This document shows, piece after piece, positions 19,350 to 25,258 of a DNA stretch of 25,258 nucleotides. The stretch is taken from assembly GCA_043819795.1 (NCBI GenBank), contig JBDREN010000069.1, positions 1-25,258 on the forward strand, read 5' to 3'. Source of the stretch: Elusimicrobiota bacterium. Lineage in GTDB: Bacteria; Elusimicrobiota; Elusimicrobia; UBA1565. A program made the position numbers and the translations under genes. Numbering within the stretch: the first letter of the stretch is position 1; the number at the start of each line of letters is the position of its first letter. The notes beneath the pieces are model-generated. The model saw only the letters and a list, made by a program, of their open reading frames with translations. It did no database searches and was not told the origin of the DNA.

Positions 19350-19574
19350 ACGCCTTCTTTTACCATTTTTCGCGGCCGCCGGTCAGACGGGGCACGTCTT
19401 ATCGACGGCGCTCACACCCGTGCGCGAGCCCCGGTCGAGGGAGAAAGCTGAAACTGGAGCCGTTTTGGGGAAGCGCCCTGAAAAATCCGCCCGCATGGCT
19501 GAATAAATCCTGACAGAAATTTTTTCTCTTTTATTTATAAGGCTTATTTCTGTTCTCATGTCAGCGCGTTGTCC

Positions 19575-19696: not shown

Positions 19697-20956
19697 ATGC
19701 CGGTACAGCGGGTGCCGAATCTGACTCCGGCTCTTATCGAAGCGCCGTCTAAAGGCCCTCTCCCAAACGAGAGGGCCTTTCTGCCGCCAATCGTGGCGTC
19801 CGCGTTCATCACGGCGTTCCTCTTCGCGGCGCCGTCCGCCCGCGCCGCGGACATACCCTCGATCATCAACTTCCAAGGCAGGCTGCTCGAAGCCGGGCAG
19901 CCCGTCACGGGAACGCGCGACCTGTCGTTCGCCGTCTACGGCTCCGCCGACGGTTCGGACCAGCTGTGGACCGAGACGCAAGCCGGAGTCTCCGTGAACG
20001 CCGGGGTGTTCTCCGTCCATCTCGGCGCCGCGGCGCCCCTGCCCGCCGAGATCTTCAACGCGGCGGAACTCTACCTCGAGATCCAGGCCAACGGCAAGAC
20101 GTTGAGCCCGCGGGAGCGCCTCGCCGCGAGCCCTTACGCGTTCAACGCCCAGCGCCTGCAGGGGCTGGAGCCCGCCTCTTTCGCCGCGAAAGAGCCCGAC
20201 GGCTCCCTGGAGATGGGCAACAAGCAGATCACCGGATTCCGAGTGGAGAACGCCGCCGCCGCGCCCGTGCCCTGCGACGAAGACCACAAAGGCTACATCT
20301 ACTTCAACACCATGGACGGGACCTTCTATGGATGCAACGGCGCCCGGTTCAAGTCCTTGAGCGACAAGCCCGACGTAGAGGGATGCGGGGAAACCCAGGA
20401 CACGGCCGGCCGCGCCTGCAAGGACATCCTGGACACATGCCCCGGCTCGCTGAGCGGCGCCTACTGGATCGATCCCAACGAGGGCGATCCCACCGACGCC
20501 TTCCAGGTCTACTGCGACATGGGCGGCCACGACGGCGGCTGGACGCTGGTCGCGGGCATATCCAGCGGCGACCAGGCCCACGTGAACAGCGCGTCCGTCT
20601 CCCCCGGGAACCTCATATCTCCGAGCGGCAAAGGAAAGCTGGCGGACTCCACGATAAACCTTATCAACTCCAATACCGATCCGGCCTACCGGCTGACCTG
20701 CGCGGGTGTCACCGGCTTCTTCCAGGGGTCATGCGTGTTCTCCGCGACGACCGCCGCCAGCGGGCCCTGCGTGGCGGTAAGCTACAGCTACCCGCCGACG
20801 TCGTACGTCGGGACCACGTCTCAGCCCGGCAACAATGGTCTGGCGGACGGAAACAGCGGCTATTCGAACCGCCTGATATACGGAGCGCCGGGCGTCACGG
20901 GCTGCGACACCGGACCAACGGGATGGGGACAGGATGGGACACTCTATGTACGATAA
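19697..20956 (+). CDS. Secreted fibre-type protein: signal peptide, NFQGR N-terminal domain, C-terminal fibrinogen-like YCDxxxxGGW domain
   Basis: GGAGG RBS then ATG 19697; A-R-A cleavage site; IPSIINFQGRL domain; PC...KGYIYFN...FYGCNG module; ACKDIL..SGAYWIDP..FQVYCDMGGHDGGWTLV. Confidence 0.82.
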   Translation: MPVQRVPNLTPALIEAPSKGPLPNERAFLPPIVASAFITAFLFAAPSARAADIPSIINFQGRLLEAGQPVTGTRDLSFAVYGSADGSDQLWTETQAGVSVNAGVFSVHLGAAAPLPAEIFNAAELYLEIQANGKTLSPRERLAASPYAFNAQRLQGLEPASFAAKEPDGSLEMGNKQITGFRVENAAAAPVPCDEDHKGYIYFNTMDGTFYGCNGARFKSLSDKPDVEGCGETQDTAGRACKDILDTCPGSLSGAYWIDPNEGDPTDAFQVYCDMGGHDGGWTLVAGISSGDQAHVNSASVSPGNLISPSGKGKLADSTINLINSNTDPAYRLTCAGVTGFFQGSCVFSATTAASGPCVAVSYSYPPTSYVGTTSQPGNNGLADGNSGYSNRLIYGAPGVTGCDTGPTGWGQDGTLYVR

Positions 20957-23900
20957 GACGACGAGAATCCGGCACGCTTTGAGCCTGGGCCTGCGGGCGG
21001 CGTGCATCGCGGGTCTCTTGCACACCAGCGGCCTGGCCCAGGCCGTTCCACCTTGGATGAACTTCCAGGGCAGGGTCCTGATCGCCGGTCAGGCCTTCGA
21101 CGGAAGCAAGGACATGGCCTTCCGAATATTCGGCTCGGAAGCCGGCGCCGACGTCCTTTGGTCGGAGACCCAATCGGCGGTCCCCGTGGACAACGGGGTG
21201 TTCTCCGTACGGCTGGGCTCCCAGACGCCCTTAGACGACGCGATCTTCGCCGCGCCGAGCCTCTATCTCGAGATCGAGGTGGACGGGAAGATCCTTCCCC
21301 CCGCGAGCCGCTCGCGACCAGCCCCTACTCCTTCAACGCCCAGCGCCTGCAGGGGAAGGACCTCAGCGATATCGTGGTCAAGGACGCTTCCGGCAACGTG
21401 GGCATCGGGACGACGAGTCCTGGAACGATGCTTCATATACTCCAAAATGGGAATTATTCCACTTTATCAAGCGGTCCTTTTGGCGGCGGGAGGAGCGCCG
21501 TAGTCCAAGCCCTCGAGCCCGCCTTTACCCTCTCCTCGGACATGAATGGAGCGGGTTGGCACACCGGCACCGAAGCGGCTGTGGGAGGCATGGCCTTCAC
21601 TCACCGTGGCTCTAGTGATTACAACAACCTTCGGGTCGGCACACGGATCGGGGGTGGGCTGTATTTAGTGACGAATAATGCCGACAGGATGGTGATCAAC
21701 ACATCGGGCAACGTCGGCATCGGGACGACGAGCCCATCGTCGAAGCTCGACGTGGCCGGGACGATCAAGGCCACGAGCTTCAGCCTCAACAACGAGACGA
21801 TCACGTCGTGGCCCTCGGGCGGGGAAGGCAGCCTTTGGACGGAGCTCAACTCCAATGTGTACAGGCCGAGCGGCAACGTCGGCATCGGGACGGCGACTCC
21901 CGAGTCGATATTCCACATAGTCAAGAACGGCAATTATTCCACGCTTACAAGCGGCCCGTTCGGCGGCGGGAGGACGGTCGTGGTCCAAGCCCTCGAGCCC
22001 GCTTTCACCCTCTCCTCCGACATGAACGGAGCGGGCATGCACACCGGCACCGAAGCGGCCGTGGGCGGGATGAGCTTCACGCATCGTGGTTCCAGCGACT
22101 ACAACAACCTTCGGATCGGCACACGGATCGGTGGCGGACTGTATTTCGTGACGAGCAATGCCGACAGAATGGCAATCAATACGTCGGGCAACGTCGGCAT
22201 CGGGACGACAAGCCCGGCGGCAAAGCTGGACGTCGCGGGCACGGTCAAGGCGACCTCGTTCGTCGGCGACGGCTCGGGCCTGACCGGAATATCCGGCGGC
22301 GGCCTCTGGACCGAAAGCGGCGGGGACGTCTATAGGGCGAGTGGCAACGTCGGCATCGGAACGAGCCCCGACGCCGATATGAACCTGCATGTCAAGAACG
22401 CCGGGGGGTCAACGGCCCAGATCAAGCTGGAGAATCCCACCGACAACCAGGTCAGATTTTGGATGAAGTCCCCCTCCTACTCCTGGGCCCACGGCGTCCT
22501 CATGTCCAACGGCGGCTCGTACTCCATCAGCAACAGCGCCACCGGAGACATCGGGAGCGACGCCAAGCTCACCATCAAGCAGGACGGGAAGGTCGGCATC
22601 GGCACGACGGGGCCAAGCGCAAAGCTGGACGTTCTCCATGACAGCTCATTCGTTCTTCGTTTGGCACGGACAAATAACGCCCCGCACGTCAAATTCGAGA
22701 ATACGGGTCAAGCCGGCAAGCATGCGGTCATCTTTGGTCAGAATGACCTATTTAGCATACAGAGGAGAGCCGCAGACAACTCGATAGAGGCCATCTGGTT
22801 GTACGGGCTAAGCAACGGCAACGTCGGCATCGGGACGGCGACTCCGACCGCGCGATTGCAGGTGCAGACGCCCGGGGCTTCTCCATTCGAGAGCGGCCTA
22901 CGGATATACAATCCCTACGGCCAGTCCGGAGGCTCAGCCGCGCTTTTGTTCAAGTCCGAGTGGACCGACGGACCCGGTCAGGCGGACCGATATTGGAAAG
23001 CGGGCATCGCCTACGAGGACGCGGGCACCTACGGACGAGGCAACCTGCATTTCCTGCTCGAGGATCAGGCCGATTACGGCGCCGCCGACCTTACAGACTC
23101 GAAGATGATGATAAGCTACGCCGGCAACGTCGGCATCGGGACGGCGACCCCGGGAGCGAGGCTTGAGGTGAACGGCGGAGATTTCATCCTCGACAACACG
23201 GATGGAGGCCTCATGGCCTTCAAGAATTCAGGCACGGCCTACGGCTACATCGGGAACGCCGCCGATCTGATCTCCGGCGCGTCGAACACCGACCTCGCGA
23301 TCCGCGCCAACGTGGGCAAGAACCTGCATTTCTCGATCGACAACATCGCGAAGATGACGTTGTCCAATAACGGCAACTTCGGCGTCGGAACGACGGCCCC
23401 GGCCAACCTCCTGCATGTCGTCGGGGGGGAGCACCAAGGCATCACGGTGAGCGGTTCGCAGACCCCGCGGATCAACCTCGACGCGAACGACGCTTCGGAC
23501 GGGCACGCGGGCTTGTGGTTCATGCAGCAGGGGACGAACATGTGGGAGATGAGGCGATACGCCAGCTCCTATAACACGGCCTCGCTGCAGAACGCCTTCG
23601 AGATTTTCCAGCTGAGGAACAAGTCGGGCTCCGAGATCAACCGGTCCCGGCTGGTCATCGACGACTACGGCAAAGTCGGCATCGGCACAACGAGCCCGGA
23701 CCAGTTCCTGACCGTCAACGGCGACGCCTCGAAGCCGGGAGGCGGGTCCTGGGCCACCTTCTCGGACGAGCGGCTCAAGGACATCAAGGGCGCTTTCGAC
23801 TCCGGCCTCGACGAGGTCCTCAGGCTCAGCCCCGTGCGCTACAGGTACAGCAAGGACAACCCCCTGGGGATCCGCGACCAAGGCGTGCACGTGGGCTTGA

Positions 23901-24073
23901 GCGCCCAGGAGGTCGAGAAGGTCATCCCCGAGGCGGTGAGCACCGGCAGCAAGGGCTACCGCCTGGTGAACAACGATCCGATCGTGTGGGCCATGCTCAA
24001 CGCTATAAAAGAGCAGCAAAGAGAGATCAAATCGCTCCGCGAGGAGATCGAGGAGCTGAAGTCGGAGAGGTAA
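20946..24073 (+). CDS. Phage tail-fibre-like secreted protein (NFQGR domain, 10 GNVGIGT-type modules, C-terminal peptidase S74 chaperone), interrupted by a 1-nt frameshift at 21297-21302
   Basis: ORF 20934-21503 carries the signal peptide and most of the NFQGR domain; ORF 21002-24073 continues the homology (PREPLATSPYSFNAQRLQG) in the -1 frame. SDERLK...GLSAQEV..VIPEAV...NAIKEQQ is the S74 signature. Start 20946 or 20934. Confidence 0.85.
21392..22261 (+). repeat. Internal duplication of a ~130-aa module, period 480 nt
   Basis: 21392-21781 vs 21872-22261: ...VQALEPAFTLSSDMNGAG.HTGTEAAVGGM.FTHRGSSDYNNLR.GTRIGGGLY... in both copies. Confidence 0.95.
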
Positions 24074-24127
24074 GAAGGGCGGCATGTTCGATAGACGGAT
24101 TCCGACAAGGACGGGCCTGAAAGCGGC

Positions 24128-25258
24128 ATGAGACGCCAGGCGCTTCCTTATATATACGCATCCCTGCTCCTGGGAGCCTGGGCGGTCGCCTCCTGGGCCG
24201 CCGGCCCGTTTACCAGCGGCACCGATGAGATCGACATGACGTCCATCAACTCGGGCGGGAGCTCCAAGCCGACCTACTCGGCCGCCGGGGAGCCGACCCT
24301 CGATCTGACCGGCTCGGTGGGCGAAATCGGGGTTTCCACCTTCGAGGGCACCAACGAAACGATCGAGGCCGGGTTGATGAACGCGCTGCCCCCCCCGGCA
24401 CCGCCGCCCGACGCGGACGGCGACGGGGTCCCGGACAGCGCCGACGCCTGCGACAACGCCACGGCGCCCGCCGGGCTAATGAGCTACTGGGGCTTCGAGG
24501 ACGGCTCGGGGACCGCGGCGTCCGATTCCTTCGATGGGAATCCCGGGACGGTCGTTGGCGCGACCTGGACGACCGGCAAAGTGGGCGGCGCTTTGAGTTT
24601 TGACGGCGCGGATGATTACGTCAACACGGCGCCGGATATATTCTCCAAGTCTGATTTCTCGAATGGCGCCACACTTGAGGCTTGGGTATACCCGACGGCG
24701 ACTCCCGCTAATGCCGCGACCGTGCTCGGCATTGAAGGGAGATTCACCATAAACGAAGACTTCGATCACGCCAATAAGTGGTCGGCGACGCTATATGACG
24801 GCGCGAACCACGGCGCCACCGCGGATGGAACGATCTCTGTCAATCAATGGGCGCATCTGGTCGCGGTATGGGACACGACCCGCGTGATCTTGTATGTCGA
24901 TGGAGTCCAACAGGCGGATGTCCCCGCCGTCGCGAACTTCGCGAGCATAGACGTCGTGAGCCGGCCGCTTGATATCGGCGCTTTCGGGGGCGGCCCGAGC
25001 CAGTTCTTTAATGGGCTCATCGACGAGGCCGCGATATACAATAGGGCCCTGACCCCCGCCGAGATCGCCGAGCATTACAGCGCCGGACAGGGCAAGAGCT
25101 ACTGCGAGCCCCCTGCCCCCGACGCGGACGGCGACGGGATCCCGGACGACGCCGACGCCTGCGACGACAACGACGCTCCGGCAGGGCTTGTCAGCTACTG
25201 GGGCTTTGAAGAAGGCTCCGGCGATACGGCCCAGGATTCCTATGATGCGCATCCGGGG
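24128..25258 (+). CDS. Secreted protein with tandem [DADGDG Asp-rich repeat + LamG-like jellyroll] units; 3' truncated by window
   Basis: Hand-translated, open from ATG 24128 to the end: MRRQALPYIYASLLLGAWAVASWA signal; DADGDGVPDSADAC; LMSYWGFEDGSG..GKVGGALSFDG..TLEAWVYP..QWAHLVAVWD..LYVDG..FNGLIDEAAIYNRAL. Second unit starts at 25121 (period 711 nt). Confidence 0.9.
   Translation, partial: MRRQALPYIYASLLLGAWAVASWAAGPFTSGTDEIDMTSINSGGSSKPTYSAAGEPTLDLTGSVGEIGVSTFEGTNETIEAGLMNALPPPAPPPDADGDGVPDSADACDNATAPAGLMSYWGFEDGSGTAASDSFDGNPGTVVGATWTTGKVGGALSFDGADDYVNTAPDIFSKSDFSNGATLEAWVYPTATPANAATVLGIEGRFTINEDFDHANKWSATLYDGANHGATADGTISVNQWAHLVAVWDTTRVILYVDGVQQADVPAVANFASIDVVSRPLDIGAFGGGPSQFFNGLIDEAAIYNRALTPAEIAEHYSAGQGKSYCEPPAPDADGDGIPDDADACDDNDAPAGLVSYWGFEEGSGDTAQDSYDAHPG

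Follow-up and report, generated by a model that had tools for sequence, protein, structure and literature searches.

Fibre base domains related to Bdellovibrio adhesins and a candidate three-repeat dock on a giant surface protein of an Elusimicrobiota bacterium

The end of the window, the 25,258-nucleotide stretch of Elusimicrobiota DNA analysed here, carries three surface protein genes, two of which encode fibres built on a common base domain. We consider it probable that this shared base plugs into a dock of three repeats, located at the beginning of the gene 3 product, which would hold a predicted trimeric, secreted fibre on the surface. A common base, distinct tips, an S74 motif and a dock straight after the gene 3 signal peptide can be read directly from the DNA, and we infer the binding of base to dock from genomics.

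RESULTS

Two fibre genes precede the start of a giant surface protein

The three genes are co-oriented on the + strand, as the original prediction had placed them (gene 1, 19697-20956; gene 2, 20934/20946-24073; gene 3, from 24128). Gene 1 (19697..20956) encodes a short fibre of 419 aa when read from the ATG at 19697, or 387 aa from the GTG at 19793, consisting of a predicted signal peptide with a hydrophobic core and AxA end (19793..19846), a MAT-N-like base domain (PF30789; 19853..20164), a neck, and a fibrinogen-like tip (COLFI/Fibrinogen_C, YCDxxxxGGGW; 20393..20953) that also matches NF040941. Gene 2 (20946..24073, alternative start 20934) is a long fibre of ~1,042 aa if a break in its base domain (21045..21355) is read through. 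The break is a one-base frameshift in a pyrimidine run ending in six C (21293..21302), and may be an assembly error or a real lesion. In one DNA run with a small share, two contigs begin aligning at 21295 and 21296, beside the break, and none spans it; among the sequencing runs listed as containing the sequence, none was an RNA run. The shaft of gene 2 (21356..23761) matches phage tail-fibre PHROGs and has 10 GNVGIGT-type repeats (G[NK][VF]G[IV]GT), with an internal duplication starting at 21395 and 21875 (109/135 aa identical). It is followed by an S74 autocleaving chaperone with a C-terminal coiled coil (23762..24070; PF13884, Peptidase_S74, E 4.7e-12; SDERLK at 23762). The expected divergence of the tips, fibrinogen-like in gene 1 and a GNVGIGT fibre with S74 in gene 2, is thus upheld by domain matches, and both genes end in their tips, without a T9SS tail. 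S74 fibres form trimers, as do MATs, and self-cleavage of the S74 domain occurs at the Ser of SDxxxK (Caulton 2024, PMC10769870). From the S74 domain and the repeats, the fibres of genes 1 and 2 are predicted to be trimeric as well.

Signal peptides had been proposed for all three genes, and hydrophobic cores with AxA-type ends were found in each; the calls use hydropathy and these ends alone (best 12-residue means 2.2-2.4, 1.86, and 1.84). By the same hydropathy reading, the base domain begins 2 residues (gene 1) or 0 residues (gene 2) past the AxA-type end.

The window holds the first 377 aa of gene 3 (24128..25258). Directly after the predicted signal peptide lies the candidate dock, the first ~65 mature residues, arranged in three ~19-20-aa repeats (24197..24391). 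Then follow a TSP3-like acidic motif with the first LamG domain (24410..25069) and the start of a second TSP3-LamG unit, broken off at the contig end (25121..25258); of the tandem LamG units described earlier, one is whole and the second is only begun within the window. Gene 3 runs off the contig and, across an exact overlap of 82 bp, continues on contig C15 (G000:C15:2-30037) as an open frame of 10,012 aa; the usual overlap in this assembly is longer, at 141 bp. The joined product is a ~10,360-aa surface protein with LamG, TSP3, F5/8, Ig-like, and FnIII domains, and its C-terminal end is without a type A T9SS tail. It is followed on C15 by a T9SS-tail protein and then a third fibre gene. There is one dock, that of gene 3, for three fibre genes at this locus, a point against the proposed pairing. 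The LamG units, which had been put forward as the fibre partner, were rejected because LamG proteins are abundant across the genome and LamG is missing from small dock proteins; the likelier partner is the N-terminal three-repeat dock.

The base domain is a distant homologue of the MAT N-terminal domain

With an X placed at the break of gene 2, the base domains of genes 1 and 2 align gap-free with 59/104 identities, in agreement with the ~60 over ~104 aa reported earlier for the corrected frame (BLASTP E 7e-29 before and 7e-9 after the break). Both match Bdello_MAT_N (NF053851; E 1.1e-7, 31.7 bits, and E 4.9e-6, 26.5 bits, for genes 1 and 2), and none of the six matches in this genome reaches the curated cut-off of 60 bits. 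Judged by sequence, the base and the N-terminal domain of Bdellovibrio MAT fibres are distant homologues, and by that model the base is not a member of NF053851. The suggested relationship to MAT fibres is borne out by the base-domain alignment, in which 97/133 members match NF053851 at E<=0.01. Like the MAT fibres of Bdellovibrio bacteriovorus (PMC10769870), the proteins described here combine a signal peptide, a beta-rich N-terminal domain with sequence homology (E 1e-7), and variable tips in a multi-copy family with both S74 and non-S74 members. Unlike in MAT fibres, the base is ~104 rather than ~130 aa long, scores 31.7 bits against the cut-off of 60, and occurs in another phylum, with fibrinogen and collagen types and with genes beside a dock, T9SS-like tails, and PorV. 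A monomer model of the base gave a beta-sandwich (pLDDT 84.7, with the C-terminal ~15 residues at low confidence). Foldseek comparison of this model with the PDB returned nothing at E<=0.001 and weak beta-sandwich matches only, and PDB sequence searches with base and dock gave no significant match.

Since the shaft and S74 domain match many tail-fibre PHROGs and gene 2 is broken, the locus could be what is left of a tail module from a prophage or tailocin. This is extremely improbable and, in our view, largely refuted: neither the base domain nor the three flanking genes tested has a PHROG match, the genes have signal-peptide-like starts, and the flanks are cellular, with housekeeping genes upstream and a rhodanese protein and a T9SS-tail protein also among the neighbours. 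Moreover, base genes are present in 20/21 genomes searched, with 10 full copies in this genome. The statement that no phage structural genes lie nearby holds for these flanks. As far as the citing text (PMC10769870) describes the S74 phage tail fibres, such as the T5 L-shaped fibre and the K1F endosialidase, they resemble gene 2 in the GNVGIGT shaft, the SDxxxK chaperone, and the tail-fibre PHROGs, and differ in that gene 2 has a signal peptide and a PHROG-less base in place of the virion-attachment end.

The original prediction also suggested a predatory or host-attached lifestyle, with fibres that, like those of Bdellovibrio, would target prey or a host cell. The homology of the base to MAT fibres would fit this, as would the giant proteins linked to predation in Omnitrophota (10.1101/2023.11.21.568195), and the Patescibacteria, which have the same dock-base pair and are episymbionts (PMC13278184). 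We nevertheless find it unsupported and regard it as unlikely, given a genome size of 5.0 Mb, the genes for riboflavin and purine synthesis in the window, and the wide spread of the dock-base pair across phyla. To our knowledge, these phyla are not known as predators. Proteins with the same base are labelled Planctomycetes, Acidobacteria, Verrucomicrobia, and Patescibacteria, and base-domain clusters come mostly from Bacteroidota, Chloroflexota, and Myxococcota. Because of this spread, the base marks adhesion, not predation.

The dock is confined to fibre loci in this genome

In this genome, all five docks adjoin fibre genes, and a dock is present at 5/6 fibre loci. With a model that contained no own-genome sequences, the five docks took the top ranks of 3,533 N-termini (E 5.5e-15 to 1.1e-4; gene 3, E 2.1e-9), the next other protein scoring E 0.67. 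Internal repetition is apparent at offsets 19, 20, and 39 (z 3.1, 3.0, and 3.7). Only 2/30 tail-motif proteins of this genome carry the dock, which is not a general feature of T9SS-tail proteins. No dock was detected at three collagen fibres on C96, where the upstream giant gene is cut and has no join.

The gene 3 dock is divergent, with E 0.12 in a model of Patescibacteria and Verrucomicrobia and E 2 in a Patescibacteria-only model. A single-sequence search with it found no short homologues, its N-terminus had no PamT or other NCBIfam match, and a five-sequence dock profile gave 17 matches, mostly repeat matches over several stretches. For the C82 dock, the ESM Atlas contained nothing at 0.9 or above. 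Modelled alone, the dock reached a pLDDT of 56 and a pTM of 0.25.

Dock and base occur together in relatives and in distant groups

Profile searches with a check for co-occurrence, as proposed for the shared domain, were carried out across genomes. Among relatives, the dock was found at 31/56 full-length base loci, 0/4 truncated-copy loci, and in 0 reversed decoys, by a model trained on most of those loci; a first pass with the five own-genome sequences had given 14/60. Of 32 dock matches, 31 share the fibre strand. The 25 loci without an HMM match include six with candidates by eye, one with a dock just beyond the fetched stretch, and several cut by contig ends. In a blind test, a lineage-only model (E<=1e-3) recovered docks at 35/79 mostly Patescibacteria loci and 18/80 Verrucomicrobia-type loci, with 0 decoys, all on the fibre strand at a median distance of 2.2 kb. 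When 60 Patescibacteria genomes, evenly drawn and including kin that are not independent, were searched, 14 had a dock, 19 a base, and 13 both, leaving 6/19 base-positive genomes without a dock match; 10/16 docks lay <=11 kb from a base on the same strand. Carriers in Patescibacteria and Verrucomicrobia-type loci are PamT-like pilins, membrane anchors, and five in-frame fibre fusions, the latter (5/37 Patescibacteria dock loci) having dock, anchor, two hydrophobic segments, and fibre in a single open frame.

Dock and base similarities covary across 33 loci (Mantel r 0.57, p 0.0005). Mutual information over 88 pairs was too weak, and too confounded by kinship, to count as evidence (top z 7.0 versus 5.7 in within-clade shuffles, p 0.03), and co-inheritance in an operon alone would also yield both co-occurrence and co-divergence. 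On a rival reading, the two parts do not touch at all: the dock could be a self-associating or donor-strand module of its carrier, with the base bound to, e.g., a PorV barrel and adhesion genes simply clustering. In line with this, PorV accompanies the base more often than a detectable dock does (38 versus 31 of 56 loci), and 42/96 dock members align with the pilin PamT over its N-terminal part. Docks without base genes also exist, including two dock, tail, and PorV cassettes with full flanks (L105 and L107); G016 is a genome with such a cassette and no base match anywhere. Thirteen dock matches fell outside the training loci: two lie behind a fibre-like gene that is truncated at a contig end, two are fully flanked without a base gene, eight are cut by contig ends, and one was not reproduced. 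What makes a lack of contact decidedly unlikely is that the pairing persists in Patescibacteria and Verrucomicrobia-type loci while the carriers vary, that five fusions join dock and fibre in one frame, that the dock is confined to fibre loci despite 28 PorV-like genes and 21 proteins of >=3,000 aa in this genome, and that a threefold repeat suits a trimeric partner.

At least 7,989 of 7,995 scored candidates belong to the dock family at E<=0.001, and among the best 120 of these no Pfam family names the dock; we found no description of a three-repeat dock in the literature. PamT of the Pam pilus of Ca. Mycosynbacter amalyticus (NF058579, PMC13278184) is the nearest likeness through the 42 members mentioned. 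The C82 dock is the sole PamT match in the genome (E 4e-7, positions 8-76 of 241), whereas gene 3 has neither such a match nor the PamT-type truncated Ig pilin domain. In the sections of the preprint consulted, PamT is called a single truncated Ig domain and no fibre binding is proposed.

T9SS-type parts accompany docks and fibres

The statement that no anchor or transporter is visible holds for the window but not beyond it, where the protein following gene 3 on C15 has a T9SS tail (TIGR04183, 24.3 bits, cut-off 23). The recommended search for a downstream barrel or sorting domain thus yielded the sorting tail, and no PorV/PorQ gene in this locus (window and C15 part). Elsewhere in the genome, the C141 dock protein has a tail of 31.4 bits by the same model, and PorV/PorQ barrels lie beside fibres on C37 and C141 (NF033709, 168.6 and 142.5 bits, cut-off 90). 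An SprA-like frame of 1,889 aa contains three ordered TIGR04189 segments (E 2e-15 to 1e-13), a partial match below the cut-off; 0/14 control genomes match. The only PorU match is to the tail region (positions ~992-1094 of 1095). The genome resembles the Bacteroidota T9SS in its tails and barrels and, tentatively, in the SprA-like frame, and differs in the partial SprA and tail-only PorU matches.

In relatives, 23/32 dock proteins have a T9SS-like tail and 38/56 base loci a PorV-like gene. Together with the tailless genes 1 and 2 and the poor model of the dock alone, these counts would suit a transient export or assembly aid that guides the base across the envelope or starts trimer formation, after which the fibre is released or otherwise held. 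We find this doubtful, as docks on giant adhesins, PamT-like pilins, and membrane-anchored Patescibacteria proteins occupy positions of display rather than of a shuttle. That the base is a docking module for interchangeable fibres, as originally proposed, is most likely; a single envelope platform is not retained, because dock carriers differ between loci.

DISCUSSION

If base and dock bind, a single dock chain with three ~19.5-aa repeats could contact the three base protomers at their threefold axis, and the dock may fold upon binding. In this lineage, the dock would have one of two carriers: a small protein with a T9SS tail, paired with a PorV/PorQ barrel, or a giant adhesin that a neighbouring T9SS-tail protein holds in turn. 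Export would presumably go through the SprA-like protein encoded in this genome. For Patescibacteria, the carriers would be membrane anchors or tip pilins resembling PamT. Most likely, the fibres serve for adhesion at some distance from the cell, with specificity for glycans or surfaces.

A broader version, to which we give an even chance, is a general bacterial plug-and-socket, in which any trimeric fibre with this base fits one three-repeat dock that has moved between carriers: a T9SS-tail protein on PorV, a 10,000-residue adhesin, a Pam pilus tip, a membrane anchor, or a cleaved polyprotein. What the MAT N-terminal domain binds on the cell surface has still to be identified (Caulton et al. 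2024, PMC10769870), and the dock is a concrete 65-residue candidate for this partner. According to a preprint, a tail-fibre-like gene co-localises with the pam operon (Troman et al. 2026, PMC13278184). If true, the plug-and-socket would identify the anchor still missing for MATs and place a tail fibre at the tip of the CPR Pam pilus, and base and dock would form a portable pair for surface display. One interaction would then account for the display of anchorless tail-fibre-like adhesins in this lineage, Patescibacteria, and Verrucomicrobia-type bacteria alike, as well as for a tail-fibre gene accompanying the pam operon.

The locus and its fibre genes

The window is contig C69 in full, from an assembly of 4.99 Mb in 241 contigs. 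Below position 19500 it carries housekeeping genes, among them those for riboflavin synthesis, DNA ligase, PurH and proline dehydrogenase. A serine beta-lactamase-like frame (PF13354; 15862-17154, minus strand) lies amid these, and they are followed by three genes on the plus strand, the signal peptides of which were called from hydropathy and AxA-type ends only. As originally predicted, gene 1 (19697-20956) and gene 2 (20934/20946-24073) share a gap-free base domain of ~104 aa (19853-20164 and 21045-21355), with 59 of 104 residues identical when gene 2, which as assembled has a one-base frameshift near 21293-21302, is read with an X at the frameshift. The proposed difference between their tips was also found, gene 1 ending in a fibrinogen-like domain and gene 2 in a shaft with 10 repeats of the GNVGIGT type, followed by an S74 domain that contains SDERLK. 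In PHROG, the base domain has no match, whereas both the shaft and the S74 domain match tail fibres. GNVGIGT repeats also occur in five other fibre frames of this genome (on contigs C61, C73, C189, C220 and C235); these lack the base domain, and some carry different N-terminal modules.

The base domain matched the NCBIfam model NF053851 (Bdello_MAT_N) with an E-value of 1.1e-7 and 31.7 bits, below the cut-off of 60, and 97 of the 133 aligned members of the base family matched this model at E<=0.01. In the ESM Atlas, PF30789 was assigned to the aligned part in 9 of 10 structure rows. AlphaFold2 predicted a beta-sandwich (pLDDT 84.7), the C-terminal end of which was modelled with low confidence, and the model had no match in the PDB at E<=0.001. 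In 21 of 21 mosaic adhesive trimers (MATs) of Bdellovibrio, a ~130-aa domain that is conserved and rich in beta structure follows the signal peptide, and its partner on the surface was left for future work (Caulton et al. 2024, PMC10769870). The literature searched, with most subscription journals outside its scope, contained no mention of the accession PF30789 and no named partner for the base domain; further related work is found in PMC13689555, PMC12034629 and PMC12204202. The locus is real, and the fibres of genes 1 and 2 are MAT-like yet fall under the family cut-off.

The genome contains 10 full copies of the base domain, every one near an N-terminus, with tips that are S74 (three), fibrinogen-like (one), collagen-stalked (three) or without Pfam match (three). 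The tip of the fibre at C141:47582-49936 (minus strand), which has no Pfam match, resembles an FGE-sulfatase/C-type-lectin fold by eye. The base domain was present in 20 of 21 genomes searched from the family and order. Going by the database labels of homologues, the phylum of this genome is taken to be Elusimicrobiota. Three truncated copies (C83:4875-6011, C83:7905-8600 and C122:12807-13619, all minus strand) lack the C-terminal segment and retain the first ~70 residues, joined to AMIN or to a coiled-coil plus LysM; they are conserved in relatives (loci L095-L098) and may represent a monomeric version of the fold that resides in the periplasm.

The giant protein of gene 3

An exact 82-base overlap joins the end of the window to the start of contig C15, and no other link leads away from this end. 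The frame of gene 3 (from 24128) extends 10,012 aa into C15, giving a protein of about 10,360 aa that contains LamG domains (12 passing stretches) as well as TSP3, F5/8, Ig-like and FnIII domains. Genes of at least 10,000 aa are frequent in Elusimicrobiota (10.1101/2023.11.21.568195). In this genome, 21 predicted proteins have at least 3,000 aa, the largest 12,270 aa, and contig ends cut many of them.

On C15 the giant is followed by a secreted-looking double rhodanese protein (29923-30978, plus strand), then its ~2,710-aa partner (30974-39103) with a type IX secretion system (T9SS) type A C-terminal domain (tail), and then a third fibre, the base domain of which is 70% identical to that of gene 1. 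The giant itself lacks such a tail. Since C160, C38 and C2 each have its C-terminal module together with the N-terminal module of the tail protein, both on one strand of that contig, the giant probably is held through this partner, and on the basis of these conserved modules the two form a second candidate docking pair, likewise on C160, C38 and C2. The module-paired partners of tail-less giants end in a T9SS-like tail on C15 and C160.

A candidate dock for the base domain

Directly after its predicted signal peptide, gene 3 encodes a domain of ~65 residues (24197-24391, plus strand), here called the dock, with four homologues in the genome. Two docks begin giants located after the fibres of C81/C162 and C82, and two sit in small proteins of dock and tail, accompanied by a PorV/PorQ barrel and a fibre (C37, C141); at least six near-identical response-regulator genes lie around the C37 operon (within C37:19391-32398). 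At the sixth fibre locus (C96, three collagen fibres) no dock was detected, and the upstream giant there is cut. With a model built without sequences from this genome, the five docks were the top five of 3,533 N-termini. The dock is a threefold internal repeat, since the family profile resembles itself at offsets of 19, 20 and 39 (p 0.0015, 0.003 and 0.0005; column shuffling, 40 offsets tested); on its own it has a poor predicted fold.

The full-length base loci of 20 relatives with E about 1e-11 or better, 56 in total, were all taken, along with 4 of the truncated-copy loci. A dock was found at 31 of the 56, at none of the 4 and in no reversed decoy, with a model trained on most of these 56 loci; the untrained first pass gave 14 of 60. 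A tail was present on 23 of 32 dock frames, and a PorV-like gene at 38 of the 56 loci. Genome-wide, the model gave 50 matches spread over 21 of 21 genomes. Thirteen lay outside the base loci already known: 2 come after a fibre-like gene that is cut, contig ends truncate 8, 1 was not reproduced and 2 have full flanks with no base gene. Dock and base similarity were correlated across 33 lineage loci (r 0.57), which could also stem from shared operon history; nearest neighbours shared a genome in only 3 of these 33. One recurring cassette (L040-L044, L046, L049, L058, L100, L103, L105-L107) encodes a ~770-aa protein of dock, FnIII-like domains and tail, and after it a PorV barrel with a long extension at its C-terminus; in two cases no fibre gene lies near the cassette.

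The lineage-only dock model was then tested blind on loci fetched by base queries from other phyla. It found a dock (E<=1e-3) at 35 of 79 mostly Patescibacteria loci and at 18 of 80 metagenome loci of Verrucomicrobia type (10 of the 28 that span at least 9 kb), on the fibre strand in every case, with no decoy matched. Patescibacteria genomes have 0-2 docks each, therefore a chance dock in a ~15-kb locus is expected in a few percent of cases. Sixty evenly drawn Patescibacteria genomes (centre genome excluded) were surveyed with models built in part on Patescibacteria sequences of the fetched loci. A dock was present in 14, a base domain in 19 and both in 13 (Fisher p 6e-8, which kinship overstates), and 10 of 16 docks lay within 11 kb of a same-strand base domain. 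Carriers there have an N-terminal dock and are of two kinds, PamT-like proteins of ~250-270 aa encoded in pilus-like operons and membrane-anchored proteins of ~410-470 aa; NF058579 was matched by 42 of 96 dock members. PamT is a proposed tip pilin, and the pam operon co-localises with a tail-fibre-like gene (Troman et al. 2026, PMC13278184). At 5 of 37 Patescibacteria dock loci (L122, L133, L144, L146, L168), a single open frame runs from the dock through the anchor and two hydrophobic segments to the fibre. These are likely polyproteins cut by signal peptidase, and cleavage of the second hydrophobic segment as a signal peptide would leave a membrane-bound dock and a released fibre.

Probable export and display

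The genome encodes 30 tail proteins by motif (40 by HMM), 28 PorV-like genes and, near one of the latter, a SprA/Sov-like protein (C134:13528-16377, plus strand, within a 1,889-aa frame) that scores under its family cut-off; a PorU body was not found in this genome. The SprA/Sov-like protein and the 28 PorV-like genes point to a T9SS-like system outside Bacteroidota.

Most likely, the fibre would be exported, here by such a T9SS-like route, would trimerise and would bind one dock, with each repeat against one protomer. Trimerisation of gene 2 may be aided by S74, which would then cleave itself, as demonstrated for Bd3182 (Caulton et al. 2024, PMC10769870). Against this mechanism stand the many base loci without a detected dock, the two fully flanked docks without a base gene, and the weak match of the gene 3 dock to models from other phyla (E 0.12 and 2). 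The dock is a strong genomic candidate for the anchor of these MAT-like fibres, and its carrier would determine the place and height at which a fibre is displayed.
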